Shown: piece after piece, positions 51,376 to 64,000 of the stretch
Position numbering within the stretch: the stretch's first letter is position 1
How the letters are laid out: each line of letters opens with the position of its first letter
DNA from: an uncultured Methanosarcinaceae archaeon
GTDB lineage: Archaea > Halobacteriota > Methanosarcinia > Methanosarcinales > Methanosarcinaceae
DNA length: 64,000 nucleotides
Assembly (NCBI GenBank): GCA_963727895.1
Contig: CAVSHT010000008.1
Span: 32,001 to 96,000 of the forward strand
Direction: 5' to 3'
Notes under the pieces: generated by a model
The model's input: only the letters and a program-made list of their open reading frames with translations
What the model was told of the DNA's origin: nothing
Database searches by the model: none
Translations under genes and position numbers: made by a program

Positions 51376-52115
51376 GGCATTGTTACTTAACTATATTTAA
51401 TTATTTATTTCTTTATTTCATCAATAGAATAACCGAGTACTTTAGCATTTCAAGACTCTTCGTATAACACTTTGTCTTTCTTCTCAACCTTGCCAGAAAG
51501 TGCCTCAATATGCTGTTATATCTTTCAACAGTATACGTTTCTGCTTTTGATTGAGTATGGATCTTTTCTGGAAGAAACTCTGCATATGCCCTCCAGTGAT
51601 CGGTCATCACTTCTCCAATCTCTTTTTTCTTCACTTTTTCCCAGAGTAGTTTTCCAGTTTCCGTTCCTCTGCTACCAAAAGAGCAGTTGATAAACTTTTT
51701 CCCAACTCTATCAACAGCAATCCAGATCCAGAAATATTTTGTTTGTTACTTATGTAAGTGTGCATCTCATCCATTTCAACAATAGATATCTCATTTTCGC
51801 TTTTTAGAGCCTCCAACTCCTGACCAAATTTCTTTATCCATTTTTGGACAGAAACATGACTCACCCCTAAAAATCGTCCTATTGAGCGAAAGCCCAATCC
51901 TTCAAGATAGAGTTGTAAAGCCTGTCTTTTTACAGAGACGGAAAAAGCAGTTGATTTTAGCTCTACTATATAGTTATAGCCACAATCAGAGCATTTGTAC
52001 CGTTGACGCCCGCCAACTATACCATTCTTTTTGTGACTGGAACTATTACATTTTGGACAGTTCATGCAGAAATATACTTTCTAATAATATATAACTATGT
52101 TTAAGTATCAATGCC
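51376..52115 (-). mobile_element. IS1-family element, copy 7 (slippery site disrupted)
   Basis: Terminal IRs; AAACAAAA replaces A8; no target duplication. Confidence 0.92.
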
Positions 52116-52960
52116 AAAAATATCTTTAAAAGATACTCCAAAGTATACCGAAAAAATGATACAGGAATATATATCAAATAATCCAAAGATTTTAGGGCTT
52201 GGGGATTTAGAATTAAGAGGCAAAGAAAGATTACAACCTAGTACAGGAAGACTAGATCTTTTGTTCCAAGTTCCAGATTCAACTCAGAGATACGAAGTCG
52301 AAATCCAACTAGGAAAAACTGATGCATCCCATATAATAAGAACAATTGAATATTGGGATATTGAAAGAAAAAGGTACCCACAGTATGATCATTGTGCAGT
52401 AATCGTGACTGAAGACATAAAGAGTAGATTTTCAAATGTAATACAGCTTTTTAATGGAAACCTTCCAATAATTGTAATTCAAATGAATGCTTATGAAACT
52501 GGAGGGAAAATAGGATTAGGCTTTGCTAAAATTATAGACAAGAAGGAGGTAGGTCTTGTTGATGAAGACGAGGAAGTTATAGAAGCTATTGATAAAAGTT
52601 ATTGGGAAGCCAAAAGTTCAAAACAGACAGTTGAGTTAGCAAATAAATTACTCAACTTGATAACAGAAATAGATCCACTTTATAATATAAAATATAACAA
52701 ACATTATATTGGCTTAACAAAAGATGGAAAAACAAATAATTTTGTCAGTTTCAGGCATAGAAAAGATTTTTTATTTTGGCAATTAAGCTTGATCAAACAG
52801 ATGAAATAATGGATGAATTAAGCAAATCCAATTTGGAACTACTAGATTATGATGTAAAAAACATAATTACAGAATCATACTTAATGAAATGGGAATTGAA
52901 ACCAACAAGGAATTACTTAGTAAACTATTCAAAATGTCTTATGACGACTATAATTTTTAA
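52111..52960 (+). pseudogene. PD-(D/E)xK nuclease-like protein, two C-terminal frameshifts; ATG lies inside the IS1 end
   Basis: GRLDLL...YEVEIQLG...HIIRTIEY motif; the C-terminus continues in other frames to TAA at 52960. Confidence 0.7.
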
Positions 52961-53680
52961 TATTGTTGTTTCCTCTTTTCCATATAACTTAGGCAACCAT
53001 TCAATTTGAAAGAAAAATTACCATATAAATATATGCTTTTTTACCAGTATTAGACATATTTTCATAACTGACTAAGGGGTGTAAAGATCCAGAAAAAAAG
53101 TATCCAGTTATTATATTTCCATTTTAATCATAAAATATCTCCCCACAGGGAAAGATCAATTTTATCAAAAAAGCCCTGTGAAGGGCTCCTTTTAAACTCC
53201 TTTTGAATCTGCAATAATCGCGGGTTTTTTAGTTTATAGTGAGTTCATGTCTATTTATCTGAAATTTTAAATTGCCACGTACCTATCTCAGAATTAGGGT
53301 TTTATAACAGGTAATACCCATTTTACCAAAATTGTGAAAATAGCTAATATAATAATAAGCCATATTACCCAACTGGGTAAGTTTTCGGGTGTTTCAACCA
53401 TAATAATAGATATTTCAGAATCATATAAAAAGACGTATAGATAGATTACTCCAACTTACCTTTTTCGAATCAATTTTAAGTTACCTGGAAAGGATATGAA
53501 AAAATTTTCATCTCTTATTAAGCGATCCATTTTCTGGCTATTTTCTTTAGTTTATAATTAACTTGAAAAATTTCCTTAAATCAGACAAATATCTAAAAAC
53601 ATATTTAGTGGAGATTCCAGCAGACAGCCAGCAGGAAAAATATCTAAAAACTGAATTCAATATCAATGGACTTGAATTCT

Positions 53681-53914
53681 TCACAAGTCCTTTTCTCCAA
53701 GCCACTCTTCTCTTGAAATACGAGATTGTTTAAGAATCCTTGTTAGAAGATCAATCCCAATTGCACCCTTATGTGGATTGGGAATCGTTAAAACAAGATC
53801 TCCTTTTCTCATAAAAGGATGCTTTCCGCCAGAATAAGATCCTTCAAATCCCAGTTCTTGCAATCTTTTAACAAAGGTTCGCCAATCGACAGGGACCAGC
53901 TTAGACAATTGCAA
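53681..53914 (-). CDS. hicA: HicA-family toxin (mRNA interferase)
   Basis: GGKHPFMRK...TIPNPH...LLTRILKQ motif. Confidence 0.85.
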   Translation of the reverse strand: MQLSKLVPVDWRTFVKRLQELGFEGSYSGGKHPFMRKGDLVLTIPNPHKGAIGIDLLTRILKQSRISREEWLGEKDL

Positions 53915-54152
53915 TATCTCCTGGTTCTTTGATTACATAGTCCCCGATCCGTGGCAGAGGTAGTCCATTTCTCAATCTGATAACGATCCATTCATCAATG
54001 ACTTCTTCCAAGTTTCTACGACATTCTTCAAGTGTCTTGCCTGTAGCCCATACACCCTCAAGTTCGGGAACTTCTCCATAATAAGGTTCTTCGTCATCGA
54101 TTATTTCGTATTTTGCTCTTTCAAGAGCCGCGTGGATATACTGGATGAGCAT
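53901..54152 (-). CDS. hicB: HicB-family antitoxin
   Basis: YYGEVPELEGVWATGKTLEEC motif; overlaps hicA. Confidence 0.85.
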   Translation of the reverse strand: MLIQYIHAALERAKYEIIDDEEPYYGEVPELEGVWATGKTLEECRRNLEEVIDEWIVIRLRNGLPLPRIGDYVIKEPGDIAIV

Positions 54153-54434
54153 AATTACACCTTTCCGAACTGATATATTTAGTTTTATACTGTTTAAATC
54201 TTATATAGGTTATGCGAATCGGGTTAGATCTGTAAGAATTACAGTCTTTAATTTCTCTTTTCTTGACAATTGTATTCGGGGAAAATTTCAGCAGACCATC
54301 GGCTGGAGAAATATATTAAAACTGAACGTGAAGAAAAGCTCACTTAAAAGTATATTCATAATTTATGTGAATTTTAAAAAAATAGAAAAAAAATAAGATA
54401 AGTGTTGATGCAAACTTAATTGCAGAAATAACAC

Positions 54435-54623
54435 TTAGTATCTTCTGTTTTCTCTGGGCGTCCTGTGGTTAGGAAGACAATCCCTGCAATAAACTGGTCT
54501 TTCTGGGTCAGGTTTGAAAGGCACTTCTGTCTCAACATTGCAGTCTGAACAGGTTGCTTTGTGCATTTCTCTTGGAGCGCCGAAATTAGAATTTCCTCTG
54601 AAGTTACTGTCATTAAAAGCCAT
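54435..54623 (-). CDS. CxxC-x17-CxxC zinc-ribbon protein, copy A
   Basis: CSDC-x17-CRDC with VPFKP..RPVY; SD AGGTGA. Confidence 0.9.
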   Translation of the reverse strand: MAFNDSNFRGNSNFGAPREMHKATCSDCNVETEVPFKPDPERPVYCRDCLPNHRTPRENRRY

Positions 54624-54675
54624 TTTTGTTTCACCTTTGTTTTTAGTTTTTGTTTTAGTTTTTATTAATTGTTTT

Positions 54676-54754
54676 AAAATAAGATTGTATAGAACTCTTT
54701 GATTAAAAACAAAAGTTGGTTTTTAATAACAGATTATTATACATCTCTTTATTT
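54676..54754 (-). promoter_or_regulatory. Conserved 5'-leader stem-loop, copy A (TATA box at 54780-54787)
   Basis: Inner stem ATTAAAAAC/GTTTTTAAT, outer GTATA/TATAC and AGAT/ATCT pairing; present before all five paralogues. Confidence 0.75.
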
Positions 54755-55192
54755 GTCAATATATATATAGCACTTAAACTATATAAATCTATTTATAAAC
54801 ATAGAGCACAATTTCTCAAATGAGAACAATTTCCAGATATAGTTTGCAGAAGAAGCAACAACCTATTTTCTGAGAACTCCTGAAAACAGAATTTGGTTAA
54901 CAGTTTTCCACTTTTGAAACAATCCTATAACAGAAAAAAATCAGTTTGATCTAAAAAAGCTGCCCTGCAAAGTGTCTCTCTTAAATCTACTAAAATAGCG
55001 GGTTTTTCAATTTCACTTTGATTCTTAAAAAACGTTTTCGGAGAGATTTCAGCATGCCGCCGGCAGAAAAATATATTTTAACTGAATCAAACGTGACAAA
55101 GAGTCCAGTTACAAAAGATATTCCACATTTGGTTTATTTTAAAAAATGGAAATGAAAAAAGTGTTGATGTAAACTTAGTTAACAAATAATAT

Positions 55193-55390
55193 TTAGTATC
55201 TATCTTGTCTGGGTTTTCTGTGTTTAGGAAGACATTCTCTACAGTAAACCGGTCTTTCCGGGTCAGGTTCAAAAGGTACTTCGGTTTCAACACCACAATC
55301 AGAACATTTTGTCTTGTGCATTTCCCTGGGAGCTCCAAAGCCTCCACGGTTGCTGTCTCTTCCTCTGCTTCCTCTGTCATTAAAGGCCAT
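55193..55390 (-). CDS. CxxC-x17-CxxC zinc-ribbon protein, copy B
   Basis: CSDC-x17-CREC; RG/RGG-rich N-terminus. Confidence 0.9.
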   Translation of the reverse strand: MAFNDRGSRGRDSNRGGFGAPREMHKTKCSDCGVETEVPFEPDPERPVYCRECLPKHRKPRQDRY

Positions 55391-55429
55391 TTGTTTTCAC
55401 CTTTGGTTTTAGTTGTTAGTTGTTGCTGA

Positions 55430-55509
55430 AAAATAAGATTGTATACGACTCTTTGGTTAAAAACAAAAATTGGTTTTTAACGACAGATTGTCATACATCT
55501 CTTTATTTT
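55430..55509 (-). promoter_or_regulatory. Conserved 5'-leader stem-loop, copy B (TATA box at 55535-55542)
   Basis: Inner stem GTTAAAAAC/GTTTTTAAC, compensatory relative to copy A. Confidence 0.75.
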
Positions 55510-56009
55510 CAATATCTATACATTGCATTTAAAATATATAAGTATTCCTATAATTATAAAAATATTTTCATTTAAATGAAAGAAAAATTTGTGATCAGGG
55601 TTTCTGGAGTAGATAAAATGCCTAAAATTCCAATTCCGGCTGATTATCCGATAAAGCAAAATTGTTGACCCTGCAAAATGTTATCTTTTAAACCTGCAAA
55701 AATTACGGGTTTTTTAGCTCTCTTTTCTTAGCAAATGTATAAGGGAAGATTTCAGAAGACCCGCGGCAGGAAAATTATCTCTAAATAGAAGAGGAAGTAA
55801 TAAACGAAATTTCAGCGTCCTTCTTTAGCAATTATAGACATTAAGTGCAAAATATATAAACAACTCATTGTCTATAGAACTTCTCCATGTCAACGCAGAC
55901 GCGTTCCTGCAGAAAAGTGAAATATATATTTCAGGCATCTTTTTTAGACGCCTTTATTTCAGATACCTATATAAAGCATCTTTATTCTGATACTTTTAGA
56001 TCAATAAAA

Positions 56010-56363
56010 TCAATACGTAATGTAGCCTTTTCGCTCAAGCCATTCGACCTGGGGTCTTGTGTATTTCCAGGTTACTTCGGCTTTGGAGTCTTGGACTTCC
56101 CAGGGATTGGCTATGACAACATCGCCTTCGTGAATCCACATTCTCTTCTTTTTAGAGCCCGGTATCCTTCCCATGCGGACAATTCCATCCATACACTGAA
56201 GTGTTACCCTTTTCGAGCCGAGTAAACATGCAACTGTTGCCAGGACTTCATTTCTATCCTTGCGGGGGATTCGTACCCTGGATACTTCCTGGGTACTTCC
56301 TGAGTTTACCGGTTTTGATGATCCTAATCTTCTTTTTCTGATAGTGCTTCTATAATTAGCCAG
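56010..56363 (-). CDS. eif1a: Archaeal translation initiation factor aIF1A paralogue 1 (probable CTG start)
   Basis: RVRIP...[33 protein letters not shown]...WKYT motif; GAGGA SD 6 nt before CTG. Confidence 0.92.
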
Positions 56364-56587
56364 GTTAATTCCTCGTTGGTATACTTTGATTAATTTTTGT
56401 AAAAGTTTGCTGTTGGGCAATTTGTACAGGTTCTCATTCTCGATATCGTTTTGTTCTTATTTTTCCTTGCCGCATGAGGGTGGAATAAATAAAGAAACAA
56501 AGAGAATAAACCAAAAAACAAAAAGAAAAGATGAATCAGGAGTTAATGTAAAATAATTACAAAATTAACGCCTAATACAGATTATCT

Positions 56588-56770
56588 TTAGAACTTCCTG
56601 TGGTTAGGAAGACAATCTCTGCAGTATACTGGCCTGCCTTCTGTGGGTTTGAACGGTACTTCGGTCTCAACACCGCAGTCAGAACAGGTCACTTTTGTCA
56701 TTTCCCTTGGTCCGCTGTTACCGCGGAAACCTCCGGAATTTCCCCTGAAATTTCTGTCATTAAAAGCCAT
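56588..56770 (-). CDS. CxxC-x17-CxxC zinc-ribbon protein, copy C
   Basis: Identical in protein to copy E despite several synonymous differences. Confidence 0.92.
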   Translation of the reverse strand: MAFNDRNFRGNSGGFRGNSGPREMTKVTCSDCGVETEVPFKPTEGRPVYCRDCLPNHRKF

Positions 56771-56809
56771 TTTCGTTTCACCTCCGCTCTAGCGGATAGT
56801 CAATAGTTT

Positions 56810-56886
56810 AAAAACAAGATTGTATAGACCCCTTGATTAAAAACGAAAATTGGTTTTTAATAACAGATTATACGTCTCTTTATTTT
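56810..56886 (-). promoter_or_regulatory. Conserved 5'-leader stem-loop, copy C (TATA box at 56912-56919)
   Basis: Same motif as copies A and B. Confidence 0.75.
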
Positions 56887-56936
56887 CAATACATACACTA
56901 TACATTCAAATTATATAAATGCATCTATACAATATA

Positions 56937-58760
56937 TAGTCACCACTTTAAATAATGCGACATTTTATGTTTAAATGTATGTTTCTCCCAAAATTCATTC
57001 ATTTCTTCCTTTAATGCTTCAATATTTTTAAATGATTTTATTGACGTTAAGTTTTCTCTTGTCACTTTCCAACAGTATTTTGTTGGGTTTCTATCTGGAG
57101 TAGCTGGAGGGAAAAATATTATTTTCAACCAATGCTTATTATTTTGATAAAATTCCTTTGCCTTTGCTGATCTATGCCATGTAGCTCTGTCCAGTAAAAG
57201 AAATATCCTTATCCCTATATCTCTTTGAAACTTGATTAATGATTTTAAGTAAGAGTCTGTATTCTGTGTAATTCCTAAATCATACCAATAAAACTCTCCA
57301 TTTTCAGTGTAGAATCCCCCAATATTGATTTTTGCTTTTGAACCACTTGTAAATTTAATAGGTTTTGAGCCCTTTATTGCCCAACATCTGGATCTATTTG
57401 AATCCACACAAAAATTACTGGAATTGGTAATTAAAAATAGATATATGTGCTTATAACATATATTTCTTCATGAACTGCCCAAAATGTAATAGTTCCAGTC
57501 ACAAAAAGAATGGTATAGTTGGTGGTCGTCAAAGGTACAAATGCCATGATTGTGGATATAACTATACAGTAGAGCTAAAATCAACTGCTTTTTCCACTTA
57601 TGTAAAAAAACAGGCTTTACAACTTTACCTTGAAGGATTGGGCTTTCGTTCAATAGGAAGAGTTTTAGGGGTGAGTCATGTTTCTGTCCAAAGATGGATC
57701 AAGAAATTTGGTCAGGAGTTAGAGGACCTAAAAAGTGAAAATGAAATATCTATTGTTGAAATGGATGAAATGCACACTTACATCGGTAACAAACAAAATA
57801 TTGCTGGATCTGGATTGCTGTTGATAGAGTTGAGAAAAAGTTCATCAGCTGCTCTTTTGGCAGCAGAGGAACGGAAACTGGAAAATTACTCTGGGAAAAA
57901 TTGAAGAAAAAAGAGATTGGAGAAGTGATGACAGATCACTGGAGAGCATATGCAGAGTTTCTTCCTGAAACGATTCATACTCAATCCAAAGCAGAAACGT
58001 ATACTGTTGAAGGATATAACAGCATATTGAGGCACTTTCTGGCAAGGTTGAGAAGAAAGACAAAGTGTTATACGAAGAGTCTTGAAATGCTAAAGTACTC
58101 GGTTATTCTATTGATGAAATACAGAAATAAAGAACTAGATATATTTAGATAACAATACCAAATTACTTTCATCAGGGGTAACGAATAAATGATTAGGGTT
58201 TAGTAATCTGTTTTTTGGACTTCTCTTATGAATTATTTTTTAAGCACCTCATTTCTTCTTTTAGATTGAGGTCGACATGTGATTTTTCTCAACCCTAAAT
58301 TTTTTAAAATTTGTCTCATTCTTGATTTGGAATAAGATACTCCAAATTTTTCCTTGACAAATTGAACTGCATCTTTTGTTTGCCAACCACGAGAATAAAC
58401 ATCATCTGTTGGTATAGGTTCTAAAAATGCCTCTCTTAACTCAGATAATTGTTCTGCAGTTAAAAAAGACTTGATTCCTCGACCAGGTTTACATTTAAGA
58501 CTAAACAAACCGTCGGTTTCAGCTCGTTTTATCCAGCGATGAACAGTTGAACGGTGAACTGAAAAATCGTCGGCAACTTTAGCGGGACTCAAACCATTTT
58601 TGATCAATAATAAGGCTTGAAGTTTAATCTACACGTTTTTGTTACAGGAATTTATGATAGCTGTAGAAATATCAGAAGTTGTAAACATTTCCAAACTCAT
58701 ATATAAAATTATATACTCATTTCAGGTATAATAATGTTGCAGTAAATACAGAGGTGACTA
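56937..58760 (-). mobile_element. IS630-family element (defective), interrupted by IS1 copy 8
   Basis: Imperfect ~30-bp IRs starting TAGTCACC, TA on both sides; HTH ORF 58233-58700 and DDE ORF (PDES, LLDRATWH, PDRNPTK). Confidence 0.88.
57420..58159 (+). mobile_element. IS1-family element, copy 8, nested in IS630
   Basis: 8-bp target duplication AAATTACT; slippery site disrupted. Confidence 0.93.
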
Positions 58761-59173
58761 TAGTACACAACTTCTCAAAAAAGAGAATTTATTTAAAAAT
58801 AATTTATGGAGAAGATAACAGCTTATTTCCTGATAGCTCCTGAAAACAGAATTCAGTTAACAGGTTTACTGGAAAGCAGCTCTACAAAGGAAAAGATCAC
58901 TGCTATCAAAAAAGGCCCTTCAAAATGCTTCTTATAAACCTGCAAAAATCACGGGTTTTCAAGATTTCTTTTATTAACAACCATACTCGGGGAATATTCC
59001 GGCAAGTTGCCGGCAGAAAAATATATTAACTGAATTAAACGTGAAAAAGAGGTTATTTAAATAGTATTTCTGGATTAATGTAACCTTCAAAATAGTATTT
59101 CTAGGTTAATGTGATTTTTAAAAAAGTGAAAAAGAAATAAGTGTTGATGCAAACTTAATTGCAGAAATAACAC

Positions 59174-59362
59174 TTAGTATCTTCTGTTTTCTCTGGGAGT
59201 CCTGTGGTTAGGAAGACATTCTCTGCAGTAAACCGGTCTTTCTGGGTCAGGTTTAAAAGGCACTTCGGTTTCAACACCACAATCAGAACAGGTTGTCTTA
59301 TGCATTTCTCTTGGAGCACCGAAATTAGAATTTCCTCTGAAGTTTCTGTCATTAAAAGCCAT
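59174..59362 (-). CDS. CxxC-x17-CxxC zinc-ribbon protein, copy D
   Basis: CSDC-x17-CREC; close paralogue of copy A. Confidence 0.9.
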   Translation of the reverse strand: MAFNDRNFRGNSNFGAPREMHKTTCSDCGVETEVPFKPDPERPVYCRECLPNHRTPRENRRY

Positions 59363-59413
59363 TTTTGTTTCACCTTTGTTTTATTTTTTGTTTTAGTTTT
59401 TATTAATTGTTTT

Positions 59414-59492
59414 AAAATAAGATTGTATAGAACTTTCTGTTTAAAATCAAAAATTGGTTTTTAACAACAGATGATTATACGGATCTTTATTT
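59414..59492 (-). promoter_or_regulatory. Conserved 5'-leader stem-loop, copy D (TATA box at 59520-59527)
   Basis: Same motif; TCTGT/ACAGA pairing. Confidence 0.72.
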
Positions 59493-59811
59493 ATCAACAC
59501 ACGTACATGAATCTTAATATATATAAATTTTTCTATAAGGGGAGAACCTTCCTCAAATGAGAACCTATCTTAGATACAGAGCTTATAGAACAAATAAAAA
59601 TGCCCCTTATATTCTGATTCCAGATGATCATTGATAAAGCAAATCTGAAGGTACTGCAAACACTCTCCCAAAATTGTATATAGAACCTTGCTCACATCAA
59701 CATTAGATATATTCCTGCAGAAAAGTAAAATGATGGGTTTCAGGCATCTTTTTCAGACACCTCTATTTCAATTATTTATTATTATATTCGGCATTTTTAT
59801 AATTTAAAAAC

Positions 59812-60162
59812 TTATTTAATATAGCCTTTCCGTTCGAGCCATTCTATCTGGGGCCTTGTGTATTTCCAGGTTATTTCGGCTTTGGAGTCCTGAATTTCCC
59901 ACGGGTTAGCAATAACAATATCGCCTTCACGAATCCACATTTTTTTATGTTTAGAGCCTGGGATTCTACCCATTCGTACAACTCCGTCCATACACTGAAG
60001 TGTTACTCTTTTCGAACCGAGTAAACACGCAACCGTTGCCAGGACTTCATTTCTGTCCTTGCGAGGGATTCTTACTCTGGATACTTCAGGGGCATCTCCT
60101 GATCTTACGGGATTTGTCGACCCTAATCTTTTTTTTCGAATAGTGCTTCTGTAATTCGCCAG
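59812..60162 (-). CDS. eif1a: aIF1A paralogue 2 (CTG start; absent from the ORF track)
   Basis: Hand translation: (M)[59 protein letters not shown]...WLERKGYIK*, 116 aa, uninterrupted; SD AAGGAG. Confidence 0.92.
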
Positions 60163-60406
60163 GTTAATTTCTCCTTGAGGATCTTGATTTAATTTGGATC
60201 TTGATTTAATTTATATCTAACTTGAAAATTGAATAGTTCGCATCGATTATTGTTCTCTATATTGTTTTGTTCTTACTTTTTCTGCTTCGATAGTGAAAAT
60301 AAGTAGAGAAACAAAGAGAACAAACCAAAAAAAACAAAAAGAAAAGATGAATCAGGGATTAATGTAAAACTTAATTACAAATTAATAGCACCTGATGCAG
60401 ATTATC

Positions 60407-60589
60407 TTAGAATTTCCTGTGGTTAGGAAGACAGTCTCTGCAGTATACTGGCCTACCTTCGGTGGGTTTGAATGGTACTTCTGTCTCAACACCGCAGTCG
60501 GAACAGGTCACTTTTGTCATTTCCCTTGGTCCGCTGTTACCGCGGAAACCTCCGGAATTTCCCCTGAAATTTCTGTCATTAAAAGCCAT
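60407..60589 (-). CDS. CxxC-x17-CxxC zinc-ribbon protein, copy E
   Basis: CSDC-x17-CRDC; SD GGAGGTGA. Confidence 0.92.
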   Translation of the reverse strand: MAFNDRNFRGNSGGFRGNSGPREMTKVTCSDCGVETEVPFKPTEGRPVYCRDCLPNHRKF

Positions 60590-60628
60590 TTTCGTTTCAC
60601 CTCCGCTCTAGCGGATAGTCAATAGTTT

Positions 60629-60706
60629 AAAAACAAGATTGTATATACCTTTAAATTAAAAAACAAAAATTGGTTTTTAATAACAGATTATACGTCTCTT
60701 TATTTT
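60629..60706 (-). promoter_or_regulatory. Conserved 5'-leader stem-loop, copy E (TATA box at 60732-60739)
   Basis: Same motif as copies A-D. Confidence 0.72.
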
Positions 60707-60949
60707 CAATAGATACCTTACACAGGCAAATTATATAAATGCATCTATACAAAGGAATATACTATTAAAGTGATAAGAAATTTTATTGTCAGTATTTATG
60801 GACGAAGTACTAAAGTCTAAACTTCTTATTTCGGTTGTTCATAGCTAAAGCAAAGTCAATTTTCTCTGAAAAGGGCTCCTTATAAATTCGCAAAAAGAAG
60901 CATAAACTAATACAAAAATTGAAATTTACAGATATTTTTACAAGTCAGG

Positions 60950-61650
60950 TCAGAGAACCAATTCACCCTTTATCCAAAGTTCATCAAATTTTGTCTTGAA
61001 TCGCTTTGCATATGATTCATCATATATTCTTGTCATACCGAGGTTTCTACTTATATTGAACTGGTCTTCAATATCTAGCAGGGTTATCTTAGAATCAATG
61101 ATTGCAAAATTGTATTCGGTTTCTATAATTTTTACTTCCATTATATCCTTAATATGGTGTTTAAATGACATATCTTCTATTAAATCAATAAGCTCTTTTA
61201 ATGATGGCAGTAATTGTGATCTCGGATCTAAAATTTTAACTTTTATGCCACGCTGTACTAAACTCAAATAAGCTTTGCAAAAGGTGGATATTGAAGCATC
61301 ATATAGCTCCGATCCTCCTGGCTTGTACTTAACATGGATTACAAAACATATTTCATGCTCGATTTTCTCAAAAGATGAAGTTACCATTAGATGAAGTTAC
61401 CATTTCTTTTAGTTCATTATTACGAAGCCTGTCAGGCCAGAAGACAGTTTCAACATTTTGTGGTAAATTGTCGTTGCAAAGTTCCCTTTCTATTTCATCA
61501 AATGTTTCTTTGAGCATTTTGAGTTCATTGAGTGTTTCTTCCTCTTTTCTTTTGTACATGAGTTTAAATGCGCTTTTAGGATCAACCGCCTGGTATCTCT
61601 TTGGTCGCAACGGTTGGATTTCGACAAGCTCATAGCTTTTGAGGACTTTG
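60950..61650 (-). pseudogene. TrmB-family transcriptional regulator remnant
   Basis: LVEIQPLRPKRYQAVDP and RGIKVKIL...FAIIDSK motifs; N-terminal HTH missing; 16-bp duplication at 61373-61404 shifts the frame. Confidence 0.7.
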
Positions 61651-61857
61651 AAAATTCGATTTTTTAATCATCCAGGTGTGTTTGGGAGAGATTTCAGCAA
61701 GCTGCTGGCAATGAAATATTTTTTAACTGTGTTGAATTGAAAATAAAATTCAAATTTCCATCCTTAGTAATTATAAATACCACTATAGCAGACTAATATG
61801 CGGGTTACTATAAAAAGCATTGAAAAATAATTATTTTGAATAGGTTGGTGTAATACT

Positions 61858-62919
61858 ATGAAAGGATTCGCAATGCTTGAAATTGGAAAAGTAGGCTGGA
61901 TTTATGCTGAAAAACCTTCCGCAGGACCATATGATGCAATCGTGAGGCCTATTGCGGTCGCACCGTGTACATCAGATGTTCATACTGTCTGGGAAGGTGC
62001 GCTTGGAAACCGCAAAAACATGATTTTAGGACACGAAGCTGTAGGTGTTATCGAAGAAATCGGGTCAGAGGTTAAAGACTTCAAACAAGGCGATAAAGTA
62101 ATTGTCCCTGCAATTACACCTGACTGGCGATCTATGGAGTCACAGGATGGAATGCCTATGCACTCAAATGGAATGCTTTCTGGATGGAAGTTTTCAAACT
62201 TCAAAAGTGGGGTCTTTGCAGAATATTTCCATGTAAATGATGCAGACATGAATTTAGCTCTACTTCCAAAAGGAATGCCCCTCGAACAGGCTGTCATGCT
62301 ATCAGATATGGCAACTACCGGAATACAGGGTGCAGAAATGGCAAATATTAAAACGGGCTCCACAGTTGCAGTCATAGGAATTGGTCCTGTTGGTCTAATG
62401 GCAGTGGCAGGTGCATCTATTCTTGGTGCAGGTAGGCTCATTGTAGTAGGAAGTCGGAAAGTCTGTGTTGATCTCGCTCTGGAATACGGAGCATCTGAAA
62501 TTATTGATTACAGAAAAGGTGGGCTTGTTGAACAGATTCTTGAAAAGACGAATGGAAAAGGTGTGGACTCTGTAATCATAGCAGGAGGAAATGAAAACAC
62601 AATTTCTGATGCAGTCAAAATTGTAAAACCCGGAGGCACGGTTTCAAACGTCAACTACTTCGGAACCGGAGATATACTGCCTATTCCACGTATAGAATGG
62701 GGATCTGGTATGTCTCACAAAGACATACGTGGGGGCTTGACAACCGGAGGTCGCCTGAGAATGGAAAGAATGGCAGACTTATGTACCTACGGAAGAATAA
62801 AACCAGAAAAAATGGCCACCCATGTGTTCAAAGGATTTGACAACGTGGAAAAGGCTCTTATGCTCATGAAAGAAAAACCGAGAGACCTGATCAAACCTGT
62901 TGTTCTTCTGGATGAATAA
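61858..62919 (+). CDS. adh: NADP-dependent zinc secondary alcohol dehydrogenase
   Basis: MKGFAML, PCTSDVH, GHEAVG, GIGPVG, GSR (NADP) and DLIKPVV motifs, as in the Thermoanaerobacter/Clostridium type. Confidence 0.9.
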   Translation: MKGFAMLEIGKVGWIYAEKPSAGPYDAIVRPIAVAPCTSDVHTVWEGALGNRKNMILGHEAVGVIEEIGSEVKDFKQGDKVIVPAITPDWRSMESQDGMPMHSNGMLSGWKFSNFKSGVFAEYFHVNDADMNLALLPKGMPLEQAVMLSDMATTGIQGAEMANIKTGSTVAVIGIGPVGLMAVAGASILGAGRLIVVGSRKVCVDLALEYGASEIIDYRKGGLVEQILEKTNGKGVDSVIIAGGNENTISDAVKIVKPGGTVSNVNYFGTGDILPIPRIEWGSGMSHKDIRGGLTTGGRLRMERMADLCTYGRIKPEKMATHVFKGFDNVEKALMLMKEKPRDLIKPVVLLDE

Positions 62920-63134
62920 ACGAGTTAATACCCTCTCTCTAAACTCTTTACAAAACCCAGAGTTTTGAGAAAGGGGCATTTTCGCTTTAGGATTGTCAAT
63001 GGCAGATAAGAATTCGATATTTTTGGCGGTTAAGAATTCTCCAATTCTCAAACCTTGAATCTCAAATTATGGATTTTTTTGAATCTCAGAGCATCAGAAA
63101 TTTTTTTCATAATAGGAAGTCGAATGATTCTTTT

Positions 63135-63374
63135 TTATATTTCAGAATTCTTTTTTCCCTTAATCCAATTGTAAATAATATACAAAGATTCTAGCGCCAG
63201 CAGTGCTAAAGCCATATAAATAAGCAAGTTCTCCCATTTACTTTGTCTAGTTAAAACAGCAATGTTTTCATTCTTTTTTCTCAGCTTCCAACCGTTAAGA
63301 ACTTTGTATTCTATTTCTTTCTGTAATTCTTCTTTTGGAACGCGCATTATAATAACATTTGACATAAATTCCAT
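63135..63374 (-). CDS. Small hypothetical membrane protein
   Basis: 79-aa ORF, one hydrophobic segment, AAGGA upstream. Confidence 0.5.
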   Translation of the reverse strand: MEFMSNVIIMRVPKEELQKEIEYKVLNGWKLRKKNENIAVLTRQSKWENLLIYMALALLALESLYIIYNWIKGKKNSEI

Positions 63375-63554
63375 TCCTTTTCCTGAATTAAAACAATCGG
63401 ACAGGTTCGTAATATTTATTGTGTAGTTTATTGTTTAATGTTTTTGAAAATAAAGTTGATGTAAAGCTTGTCCAATATTATATTTTCGCTTAATTTGGAC
63501 TCTGAAAAAAAGATTTTAGATTTCATTTTTATTAATTACTTTTATAAACTCACC

Positions 63555-64000
63555 TTAAAACTTCAAACCATCATCAGTTAATGTAATATCGTAGTTTCCA
63601 ACAAAAAAAGTATCATGTACGTTTACACCGTTTATGGTTTGTCTTGGTGTATCGTCTATTTCTACCTCACTATCAGTTATATGGATTTTCTTGCCACCTA
63701 CATAAAAAATTCCGCTTATTGCAACATAACCGTCTTCTGTAATTTTAGCATTGAAAACAACATCACCGTTTTCTCTTTTTATTAATGTGAGGCCATTTTC
63801 TTTTTCAATTTCTCCTTGCACATCAAATTTTTCGTTTATTTGAGTAAATTCATTTCTATCGATTTTTGCTATTATTTCTGAATTATGATCCCGGATCTCT
63901 GTTGTCAGAATCAGATTTCCATCGCAGTTTTCCAGAGTAAATAATTGCGTCTTGTCTTCAGTGTTTTTGTCTGTCTGATATGACACTGTATATATCTGAT
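63555..64000 (-). CDS. Hypothetical beta-rich protein, may start beyond the window
   Basis: Open frame of at least 143 aa reaching near the window edge. Confidence 0.6.
   Translation of the reverse strand, partial: QIYTVSYQTDKNTEDKTQLFTLENCDGNLILTTEIRDHNSEIIAKIDRNEFTQINEKFDVQGEIEKENGLTLIKRENGDVVFNAKITEDGYVAISGIFYVGGKKIHITDSEVEIDDTPRQTINGVNVHDTFFVGNYDITLTDDGLKF

Follow-up and report, generated by a model that had tools for sequence, protein, structure and literature searches.

The region analysed is a 64,000-nt stretch of contig CAVSHT010000008.1 (assembly GCA_963727895.1), hereafter the window, to which all coordinates refer; every feature listed below lies on its minus strand. Five genes for zinc ribbons of 60–65 aa are found here, and all five are preceded by a leader motif of ∼80 nt. 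A first-pass annotation had located these five copies, and our coordinates agree with it to within 1 nt; the TATA-box spacing it described is also present, each copy beginning 25–27 nt past the 3′ end of a TTTATATA box (CTTATATA in copy B). The core palindrome pattern, with up to two mismatches allowed, occurs five times in the window against a chance expectation of 0.23, and none of 100 shuffled sequences reached five. The features are as follows.

54780..54787, minus strand: TATA box of copy A (TTTATATA), an invariant block in 122 related units
54676..54754, minus strand: leader motif of copy A, hairpin P1-P2-P2b-P3; covariance model 102.3 bits
54706..54733, minus strand: anti-start segment of copy A (5′ arm, loop and first U's of the 3′ arm)
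54606..54634, minus strand: translation start region of copy A (−11 to +18), partner of the anti-start segment
54435..54623, minus strand: gene A, 62-aa CxxC-x17-CxxC zinc ribbon; TIGR04272 68.3 bits, PF23477
55535..55542, minus strand: TATA box of copy B (CTTATATA)
55430..55508, minus strand: leader motif of copy B, with G-C closing pair and extra GAC/GUC; 105.7 bits
55460..55487, minus strand: anti-start segment of copy B
55373..55401, minus strand: translation start region of copy B, codon 2 GCC
55193..55390, minus strand: gene B, 65-aa zinc ribbon; TIGR04272 68.6 bits
56912..56919, minus strand: TATA box of copy C
56811..56885, minus strand: leader motif of copy C, class 2, internal loop 3 nt shorter; 96.8 bits
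56840..56867, minus strand: anti-start segment of copy C, a perfect match except for one bulge and one mismatch; −29.9 kcal/mol
56784..56795, minus strand: second hairpin of copy C (CCGC-N4-GCGG), abutting the Shine-Dalgarno sequence
56753..56781, minus strand: translation start region of copy C
56588..56770, minus strand: gene C, 60-aa zinc ribbon; TIGR04272 73.5 bits
59520..59527, minus strand: TATA box of copy D
59414..59492, minus strand: leader motif of copy D; 91.9 bits
59444..59471, minus strand: anti-start segment of copy D
59345..59373, minus strand: translation start region of copy D
59174..59362, minus strand: gene D, 62-aa zinc ribbon
60732..60739, minus strand: TATA box of copy E
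60630..60705, minus strand: leader motif of copy E, class 2; 79.8 bits
60660..60687, minus strand: anti-start segment of copy E
60603..60614, minus strand: second hairpin of copy E, abutting the Shine-Dalgarno sequence
60572..60600, minus strand: translation start region of copy E
60407..60589, minus strand: gene E, 60-aa zinc ribbon, protein identical to that of gene C

Copies C and E lie within a duplicated block, and the zinc-ribbon copies are clustered beside insertion sequences. The second hairpin before the Shine-Dalgarno sequence is confined to class 2 leaders, with variants of the form CCGTT..AACGG in relatives.

The encoded proteins belong to TIGR04272/PF23477, a family of CxxC-x17-CxxC zinc ribbons (treble-clef zinc finger, PF23477), and carry an Arg/Gly-rich N-terminal tail (FRGNSGGFRG). 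The same family is represented by small proteins of M. mazei, for which eight zinc-binding CxxC-x17-CxxC paralogues are reported, with highest-confidence proteomics detection and very high abundance; the conditions given are heat, salt, virus and starvation, with cold not among them (PMC12704099). A primer for one of these paralogues is identical in sequence to the 28 nt with which gene D opens, and the main text of that article, which concerns proteins, contains neither the word UTR nor the word leader (PMC12704099). In the literature searched, we found no description of this leader.

The whole leader spans ∼120–130 nt, with the hairpin beginning a few nucleotides from the likely 5′ end. RNA-library contigs from three runs of three studies connect it to the coding sequence, at gene B (55241–55513, 55213–55485 and 55169–55491) and at gene C (56682–56870 and 56597–56864). 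Oligo-U alone can terminate archaeal transcription, the U tracts of the leader are 90–100% conserved, and a hairpin followed by U's resembles a terminator; the leader might act as a transcription attenuator or give rise to a small RNA, with the U runs (UUUUUGUUUUU in the hairpin, U4–5 after it) stopping the polymerase early and read-through being regulated. We regard this as very unlikely, since the contigs continue from the leader into the coding sequence and pairing accounts for all of the U's. A bacterial-type terminator scan found nothing at the leaders, though its requirement for G+C-rich stems makes it a poor test.

The motif can be folded as a hairpin built from helices P1 (AAAUAA.GA with UC.UUAUUU), P2 (GUAUA with UAUAC), P2b (UCU with AGA) and P3 (AUUAAAAAC with GUUUUUAAU), an open fold that is predicted to leave the Shine-Dalgarno sequence and AUG free. 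The closing pair is A-U in copy A and G-C in copy B, as claimed in the first-pass annotation, and both of its additional helices were found (GAC/GUC in copy B, UCUGU/ACAGA in copy D). Hairpin z-scores of the five window copies range from −1.4 to −4.05, copy B forming the strongest hairpin (−24.5 kcal/mol, z −4.04), and 40 leaders sampled from the 122 related units give a mean z of −3.2, with 38 of the 40 below −2. Across the 122 distinct units, identity is 0.97 at paired positions (n = 50) and 0.87 at unpaired positions (n = 30); the loop had been described as almost invariant, but at positions 38–41 its identity is 0.80–0.88, against ∼0.97 in the stems. In the 122 units, conservation of the leader exceeds that of third codon positions and of the sequence preceding the TATA box, and the constraint on it is stronger than on synonymous sites. 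The covariation claimed for the stem holds for one pair, 29/54 (AU 57, GC 12, GU 12 and other 20 in 101 rows), while the other 24 of the 25 hairpin pairs never change on both sides. With a single unbranched imperfect hairpin, one covarying pair in 25 and no multi-helix covarying aptamer, a riboswitch is not supported. Searching Rfam 15 with window positions 52000–64000 at E ≤ 1 returned only a chance miRNA match elsewhere (23.8 bits, gathering score 90), and 13 loci of other genera had no match at E ≤ 0.1; the claim of novelty stands in that Rfam has no matching family.

The leader is conserved across three sister genera and is tied to zinc-ribbon genes. It precedes all seven intact TIGR04272 genes of this genome, two of which lie elsewhere than the five described here, as does one decayed copy that also has the leader, and among the loci examined 82 of 85 distinct covariance-model matches have an intact CxxC..CxxC frame within 90 nt downstream, two of the remaining three being decayed copies. 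It is found at ∼74 of 79 related Methanosarcina loci, the five exceptions being explained by a contig end, N runs or (L108) other upstream DNA. In phylogenetic range, the covariance model matches 28 of the 121 genomes of the family (19/19, 2/2 and 6/6 in genera g1, g2 and g13), with none in its other 13 genera, and at the level of the order 17 of 151 genomes, with 0 of 102 in the five other families. That the likeness carries no function, and stems from recent duplication or gene conversion of paralogues, is extremely improbable. The clustering beside insertion sequences and the C/E duplicated block with its identical proteins would fit such an origin, but conversion would even out coding and non-coding DNA alike, whereas conservation of the leader far exceeds that of synonymous sites, pre-TATA DNA and spacer; the pattern moreover holds in three genera and 122 distinct units, and where the gene has decayed the leader has decayed too.

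The hairpin is only half the picture. Motif nucleotides 23–50, the 28 nt that run from the 5′ arm of P2b/P3 through the loop into the first U's of the 3′ arm, are antisense to the start of their own gene, pairing with −11 to +18 in a helix of 26 bp with one bulge and one mismatch, and the predicted closed fold covers the last two Shine-Dalgarno bases, the AUG and codons 2–6. This leader–start complementarity is real, conserved and stronger than chance, and it excludes the hairpin: the two helices are mutually exclusive. The stem-loop interpretation of the first-pass annotation was sound in recognising a conserved, gene-linked, sense-strand 5′-leader element, but missed the antisense match of the 5′ arm and loop to the gene start. 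Sequence similarity between the hairpin's 3′ arm and the first codons of the gene would make that arm a decoy for the same partner.

RNAalifold, run on an alignment of 101 distinct rows, returned the long-range helix as the consensus and not the hairpin. RNAfold predictions from the transcript start to +45 give the 5′ arm–start helix in 89 of 122 units, the hairpin in 32 and another fold in one. In folds of the whole mRNA, the probability of 5′ arm–start pairing is 0.85–0.90 for copies A, C, D and E, while copy B prefers the hairpin (P 0.71); over all folds computed, the values are 0.84–0.85 for start pairing in copy A and 0.71–0.78 for the hairpin in copy B. Duplex energies of leaders with their own starts average −24.3 kcal/mol (range −18.9 to −30.7, 105 units). 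A leader of ∼80% A+U with runs of A and U favours accidental pairing, but the controls argue against this explanation: one leader (that of the first unit) paired with 400 other starts of the same genome gave −11.1 kcal/mol (sd 2.6, minimum −20.1), none of the 400 reaching the own-pair mean, and for each of the five window copies the observed energy was reached by 0 of 300 dinucleotide shuffles of either partner.

Over the 101 rows of that alignment, 95.4% of the long-range cells can pair, rising to 98.0% in the 16-pair helix from the AUG to codon 6, and sliding the partner along lowers pairing to 46–57%. The A/G polymorphism at nucleotide 29 creates 20 mismatches in the hairpin but only one in the long-range helix (AU 59, GU 39, GC 2), and long-range pair 57/152 occurs as UA 50, UG 28 and CG 5. 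Loop variants with C have a G in the Shine-Dalgarno–AUG spacer in 13 of 15 cases, a partial covariation of loop and start, and the subfamily with AGU as codon 2 carries the loop CUCA/CUUCA, complementary to AUGAG. Third positions of codons 2–6 are 0.98 identical, against 0.74 at 21 equally conserved residues of the zinc-ribbon core; constraint on first codons has other known causes. Only two of the 26 long-range pairs change on both sides, which 410 of 500 shuffles do as well, and the long-range covariation score is equalled by 15 of 500, the sequences being close kin. In other genera, members of this gene family are preceded by leaders of ∼300 nt that are quite unlike this one and show no antisense match to their own start regions (z at least 0 in 14/14).

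One alternative is that the hairpin acts alone, as a plain 5′-terminal structure that keeps a very highly expressed mRNA stable or raises its translation; complementarity to the start would be a by-product of A/U richness or of shared ancestry of 3′ arm and first codons. The position of the hairpin near the 5′ end, its z-scores and the better conservation of stems than loops fit this, as do the abundance of the proteins in M. mazei (PMC12704099) and the long 5′ UTRs reported to affect mRNA stability in methanogens (PMC5499594). A stabiliser, however, needs shape and not sequence. Hardly any base of this motif varies across the three genera, and compensatory changes are almost absent; the 26-bp start match, the frozen synonymous sites of codons 2–6 and the loop bases that track the start region would all be left unexplained. 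We therefore consider a plain hairpin unlikely, while a role of the leader as an mRNA stability element is possible.

A DNA element is also improbable, in our assessment. Here a transcription factor would read a box of ∼15 bp (consensus G-Y-UUUUAAU-N-A-M-AGA) as a downstream operator or roadblock co-regulating all paralogues. Of the three occurrences of this box, the one in the 5′ arm is inverted, and those in the 3′ arm and at the first codons are direct. The shared consensus, the near-invariant sequence with little covariation and the position at ∼+25 to +60 and +125 from the promoter suit an operator. The antisense strand folds more stably in 78 of 122 units, both strands being about equal, so that energy cannot pick RNA over a DNA palindrome, and G.U over A.C cells (53 vs 28) show only a mild strand bias. 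Against an operator, where only one side of a P1 or P3 pair has changed the result is mostly G.U (35 vs 6 A.C), the nested inverted repeats extend over ∼78 nt and exceed a normal operator, and half-sites 16 bp apart centre to centre would lie on opposite helix faces. The complementarity also runs 10 pairs beyond the box, through the loop and the Shine-Dalgarno–AUG spacer, where U-A gives way to C-G or U.G, and in diverged copies the 5′ half of the motif is better kept than the 3′ half.

On balance, we think it probable that the leader controls translation in cis by adopting one of two mutually exclusive folds, the open hairpin or the closed helix: by folding on itself or clamping its own start codon, it would form a built-in switch for the amount of protein. 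During transcription the hairpin would form first, since synthesis of its 3′ arm precedes that of the start region by ∼80 nt, and the mRNA would be open to translation; the closed fold, slightly the more stable, could then shut off or tune translation. Paralogues may be set to different points, type B favouring the open fold. Candidate triggers are time, cold that slows refolding, an RNA chaperone or helicase, leader cleavage, and the RGG-tailed zinc-ribbon protein itself, whose binding to its own leader, raised in the first-pass annotation, is possible, the only hints being its Arg/Gly-rich tail and its treble-clef zinc finger. The preference of 32 of 122 units and of window copy B for the hairpin counts against a switch, and the reported abundance of the M. 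mazei proteins (PMC12704099) is not easily reconciled with a ground state in which the start codon is hidden.

In the model, the closed fold keeps an advantage of 3.2–3.9 kcal/mol over the open fold between 10 and 55 °C, in 82–92 of 105 units. This flat gap speaks against the AU-rich thermosensor proposed earlier, at least as an equilibrium device, and a ROSE/fourU-type thermometer is not supported: the Shine-Dalgarno sequence and AUG are predicted to lie in a helix, but in the model it does not melt gradually over this range. Barriers from the open to the closed fold, estimated with findpath and thus heuristic upper bounds, are 14.5–21.2 kcal/mol at 37 °C and 21.1–24.8 at 15 °C for copies A, C, D and E, with the reverse trend in copy B (24.3 at 37 °C, 18.8 at 15 °C). 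A more specific and tentative version of translational control, which we hold to be rather unlikely as it stands, is a kinetically controlled mRNA timer, in which the co-transcriptional hairpin would license a burst of translation before refolding to the closed state; cold would slow this refolding, and an RNA-annealing protein, most attractively the RGG-tailed product itself, would speed it. No report of cold induction of the zinc-ribbon genes was found in the literature searched.

A close parallel is the cspA mRNA 5′ UTR of Escherichia coli, a cold-shock RNA thermosensor with two folds, of which the co-transcriptional one is more translatable. Both systems have a leader of more than 100 nt before a small, abundant, multi-paralogue gene, sequence just past the start codon takes part in both, and two alternative folds, the co-transcriptional one the more translatable, may be common to them. 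Unlike cspA, the leader belongs to an archaeon and has no sequence or Rfam relation to it, its closed fold is predicted to be a simple 26-bp antisense helix, and temperature leaves its modelled equilibrium unchanged; what rises in the cold is the estimated barrier to refolding alone, in A, C, D and E and not in B. A timer, if real, would make these genes an archaeal counterpart of the bacterial cspA system, in which many small paralogues share a long conserved leader, translation is favoured by cold and the product regulates itself negatively.

Other systems share single elements. The rpoS leader is self-inhibitory and opened by DsrA/RprA, and riboswitch platforms combine a sequestor with an anti-sequestor; as in these, an upstream leader segment pairs with the ribosome-binding region and a competing partner would free the start, but the competitor here is built in as the 3′ arm of the same hairpin, and neither an aptamer-like conserved multi-helix domain nor a trans-acting RNA is evident. 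Archaeal ribosomal proteins such as L1 in Methanococcus regulate their own translation, as does L7Ae by way of a kink-turn in the 5′ UTR of its mRNA. They too are small archaeal proteins with a conserved structured site in their own mRNA, RNA binding being putative here; unlike their sites, the leader contains no recognised kink-turn or rRNA mimic and has no Rfam match. In Methanolobus psychrophilus, of the same methanogen family, 5′ UTR processing by endonucleolytic cleavage at U-rich sites is reported to stabilise and activate mRNAs of ribosomal-protein operons (PMC5499594). Long leaders are common to both, and regulation just 5′ of the ribosome-binding site may be, whereas antisense pairing is not described in the part of that article considered here (PMC5499594). 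One class of the zinc-ribbon genes is co-transcribed with an extra aIF1A.

Five copies of the leader motif, a ~80-nt hairpin made up of the helices P1, P2, P2b and P3 (the open fold), lie before five zinc-ribbon genes. The first-pass annotation had placed the motif ahead of all five zinc-ribbon genes in the window, which is borne out (5/5), and its coordinates and named sequence details are correct for the five copies.

Leader motif copies and zinc-ribbon genes in the window
54676-54754, minus strand, leader motif copy A, before gene A
54435-54623, minus strand, zinc-ribbon gene A
55430-55508, minus strand, leader motif copy B, before gene B
55193-55390, minus strand, zinc-ribbon gene B
56811-56885, minus strand, leader motif copy C, before gene C
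56588-56770, minus strand, zinc-ribbon gene C
59414-59492, minus strand, leader motif copy D, before gene D
59174-59362, minus strand, zinc-ribbon gene D
60630-60705, minus strand, leader motif copy E, before gene E
60407-60589, minus strand, zinc-ribbon gene E

Each of the five copies starts 25–27 nt after a box reading TTTATATA or CTTATATA. Five occurrences of the core palindrome were counted in the window, with 0.23 expected. An upstream open reading frame in the leader was considered and rejected: the AUG that copies A and B carry in GAGAUGUAUAA is not conserved, since motif position 13 varies among the 122 units (88 C, 25 U, 9 A). Contigs assembled from RNA libraries, with runs from different studies, link leader and coding sequence in genes B and C. 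The uppermost contig ends for gene B are at 55513, 55491 and 55485, and adapter-joined ends for gene C are at 56870 and 56878, all being ends of assembled contigs and not mapped transcription starts. No contig covers the promoters or 55574-55664, and these uncovered parts carry no weight. Because such contigs neither prove transcription nor give transcript ends, we used them only as being consistent with the leader forming part of the mRNA.

All five genes match NCBIfam TIGR04272 (CxxC-x17-CxxC domain; 68–74 bits, cut-off 36) and Pfam PF23477 (probable treble-clef zinc finger), and the zinc-ribbon proteins have Arg/Gly-rich tails. The host genome, a Methanosarcina of 3.67 Mb, carries the leader at 7/7 intact TIGR04272 genes, with an eighth leader preceding a decayed gene copy. 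A scan of one genome per species gave 201 relatives, from which 79 loci were kept; these belong to Methanosarcina or to Methanosarcinaceae/Methanosarcinales bins, except for four loci from three bins filed at phylum only and three from one metagenome assembly record. The leader can be made out at about 74 of these 79 loci, the remainder being cut, masked or, at one locus, preceded by different upstream DNA. A covariance model of the motif, built from 79 sequences, matched 28 of 121 genomes of the family, in three genera only (our labels g1, 19/19; g2, 2/2; g13, 6/6), and 0 of 102 genomes in the five other families of the order. The zinc-ribbon gene family reaches wider than the leader, to 85/121 genomes and 11/16 genera. 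At the loci examined, an intact CxxC..CxxC frame follows within 90 nt of 82 of the 85 distinct model matches. The leader occurs in 2–14 copies per genome. Comparison with Rfam gave no match to the motif in the window, in line with the earlier view that the motif is new, and none to the leaders of other genera. Decayed copies at G000:C5:243179-243239 (locus L008, elsewhere in the host genome) and at locus L085:249-337 have lost the start codon and have a broken frame; of their leaders, the 5' half can still be recognised and the 3' half has drifted. In M. mazei, PMC12704099 describes eight paralogues of these proteins as zinc-binding and abundant, and the proteins behind the leader are among the small proteins detected most reliably in that species. 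The highly translated sORF_06 of PMC11456600, which has four cysteines, may also belong to the zinc-ribbon family.

In an alignment of 122 distinct units, running from promoter through gene, the leader columns are mostly 90–100% identical; DNA 5' of the TATA box is 40–60% identical and many third codon positions 50–70%. This contrast between leader and synonymous sites contradicts the idea that the leaders are alike merely through similarity of paralogues, which we regard as extremely unlikely. Mean identity within the leader is 0.97 at hairpin-paired and 0.87 at unpaired positions, and substitutions and indels fall in the internal loops (nt 11–13, 19–22 and 62–64) and the first half of the terminal loop.

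The hairpin is thermodynamically credible, with folding z-scores of −1.4 to −4.05 for the five window copies, averaging −3.2 in 40 relatives, and its pairing fits 97% of alignment cells compared with 33–57% when the partner is slid. The covariation first reported for the stem-loop holds at the pair closing P3 (AU 57, GC 12, GU 12, mismatch 20), but at none of the 24 other pairs do both partners change. The sense strand is not preferred by folding energy, the antisense being slightly more stable, and G.U cells exceed A.C cells only mildly (53 vs 28), so the hairpin taken alone could be an RNA element or a DNA palindrome. A DNA operator with three related boxes agrees with the invariance of the sequence, but 10 further pairs outside the boxes, together with pairing-preserving changes outside them, do not fit such an operator, making it quite unlikely. 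Copies C and E (class 2, with a shorter internal loop) have a second hairpin, CCGC-N4-GCGG, in place of the A-rich spacer (56784-56795 and 60603-60614, minus strand). It abuts and partly covers the Shine-Dalgarno sequence, as in the C5 copies of the host genome, and its CCGTT..AACGG and CCGC..GCGG variants in relatives are compensating changes.

When the leader was folded jointly with the first 45 nt of the gene, the minimum-energy fold paired motif nt 23–50 with the unit's own start region in 89 of the 122 units, and was the hairpin in 32 and another fold in 1. In this closed fold, UCUGUUAUUAAAA.CCA.UUUUUGUUUU pairs with GAAACAAAAAUGG.UUUUAAUGACAGA, forming a long-range helix of 26 pairs that runs from the last two bases of the Shine-Dalgarno sequence, over the AUG, to the end of codon 6. 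The interaction energy of leader and own start averages −24.3 kcal/mol (105 units), whereas the first unit's leader, when paired with 400 other starts from the same A+T-rich genome, gave −11.1 (sd 2.6, best −20.1). For each of the five window copies, the observed pairing energy was reached by 0 of 300 dinucleotide shuffles of either partner. Across 104 aligned units (101 distinct), 95.4% of cells pair, rising to 98.0% for the part from the AUG to codon 6, compared with 46–57% in slid controls. RNAalifold, proposed earlier as a check, took the long-range helix as the consensus of this alignment, and not the hairpin originally noted. Whole-mRNA folds gave the long-range pairing a probability of 0.85–0.90 in copies A, C, D and E, and copy B keeps the hairpin (0.71). 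The comparison shows two conserved predicted pairings that exclude each other, and one of them spans the start codon.

Independent signs also point to constraint on the start region as RNA. Third positions of codons 2–6 (GCU UUU AAU GAC AGA) are 95–100% identical (mean 0.98), compared with a mean of 0.74 at 21 zinc-ribbon core residues of equal conservation. A common A-to-G change at motif nt 29 makes a mismatch in the hairpin (20 rows) and a G.U pair in the long-range helix, where nt 29 is unpaired in only 1 of 101 rows. Loop bases, which the hairpin does not use, track the start region: of 15 variants with a C in the loop's 3' half, 13 have a G in the spacer between Shine-Dalgarno and AUG, with window copy C a perfect example, and in a subfamily with AGU as codon 2 the loop complements AUGAG. 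These associations come from close kin and carry no formal statistics. A plain stabilising hairpin is unlikely, as it leaves unexplained both the match to the start region and the frozen codons. Under two-conformer translational control, which we consider the probable reading, the 5' arm must match two partners at once, and therefore the leader hardly varies and covariation is nearly absent.

The hairpin's 3' arm (GUUUUUAAUCAAAGAG) is similar to the first codons (GCUUUUAAUGACAGAG), and transcription reaches it ~80 nt earlier, so the hairpin should form first and leave the start site open. The modelled closed fold is more stable by 3.2–3.9 kcal/mol, in 82–92 of 105 units. Direct-path barriers, which are heuristic upper bounds, are about 14.5–21 kcal/mol at 37 °C and 21–25 at 15 °C for copies A, C, D and E; copy B behaves in the opposite way (24.3 kcal/mol at 37 °C, falling to 18.8 at 15 °C, likewise heuristic upper bounds). 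The modelling suggests a metastable open form, which would close over time. B-type copies have a stronger hairpin (G-C closing pair, extra GAC/GUC) and a weaker match at codon 2 (GCC), and so are predicted to sit on the open side. The modelled gap between the folds does not change from 10 to 55 °C; a classical melting thermometer is therefore not supported, nor is, as an equilibrium device, the AU-rich thermosensor of the first-pass annotation. Cold could act only through slower closure. Arg/Gly-rich tails bind and anneal RNA in other systems, and by analogy feedback of the zinc-ribbon product on its own leader is possible. An attenuator is very unlikely; scans for bacterial-type terminators and sigma-70 are uninformative for an archaeon.

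To our knowledge, very few cis-acting RNA control elements have been described in Archaea, and next to none in methanogens. The design here is a simple one: 28 nt of antisense sequence and a decoy built into the same leader. It would allow alternative mRNA folding to be tested directly as a means of translational control, in an archaeon amenable to genetics. Its paralogues would form a natural series at different open/closed balances, which may help to explain the role of the zinc-ribbon proteins. Self-inhibitory bacterial leaders include cspA, rpoS and riboswitch expression platforms; by analogy the present design would work similarly, although no tested criterion places it within any of these types. 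The leader is undescribed in the literature searched; 5' ends may be listed in start-site tables from the M. mazei and Methanolobus work. No description appears in the available parts of PMC12704099, 10.1101/2025.10.28.685009, PMC5378194, PMC11456600 and PMC5499594, and the words UTR and leader are absent from the available main text of PMC12704099.

The sister genera g4, g16 and g10 (loci L110–L139) carry the same zinc-ribbon family with longer Arg/Gly-rich tails. Their genes lie ~300 nt downstream of a TATA box, with conservation between genera over the entire stretch (e.g. L127:1762-2063, minus strand). No antisense match between leader and start region was found in other genera. RNAalifold on 16 sister-genus sequences returned a 5' stem together with a long-range helix (CGUAU.GAU with AUC[GA]UGCG), and at three pairs the two sides vary in concert (CG 10/UA 5, AU 9/GC 7, UA 7/CG 6); these ~300-nt leaders have no Rfam match. 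This stretch and the beginning of the Methanosarcina leader have AAGAGA..CGUAUA in common and so may be related. The larger conserved leaders of the sister genera, otherwise unrelated to that of Methanosarcina, suggest that the gene family is consistently subject to post-transcriptional control.

Within the window, a segmental duplication (56010-56900 and 59812-60720) holds the block of leader, zinc-ribbon gene and aIF1A gene twice, and zinc-ribbon proteins C and E are identical. The aIF1A paralogue, which has an N-terminal extension, follows genes C and E at 56010-56420 and 59812-60204 (minus strand); the first copy matches NF003085 (161.7 bits), the second is open for 130 residues, and one RNA-library contig (56236-56711) runs from gene C into the first copy. 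An aIF1A-like frame lies ≤1 kb downstream of 16/30 class-2 and 5/82 class-1 genes, by a crude motif search over loci that were not de-duplicated. An IS630-family transposase gene on the minus strand is interrupted: its C-terminal part lies at 56940-57407 and its N-terminal part at 58233-58607, with an IS1-family element of two overlapping frames inserted between them (57470-58152, plus strand). Just downstream of gene A, 53681-53914 and 53901-54152 (minus strand) form, by eye, a candidate HicA/HicB-type toxin-antitoxin pair.
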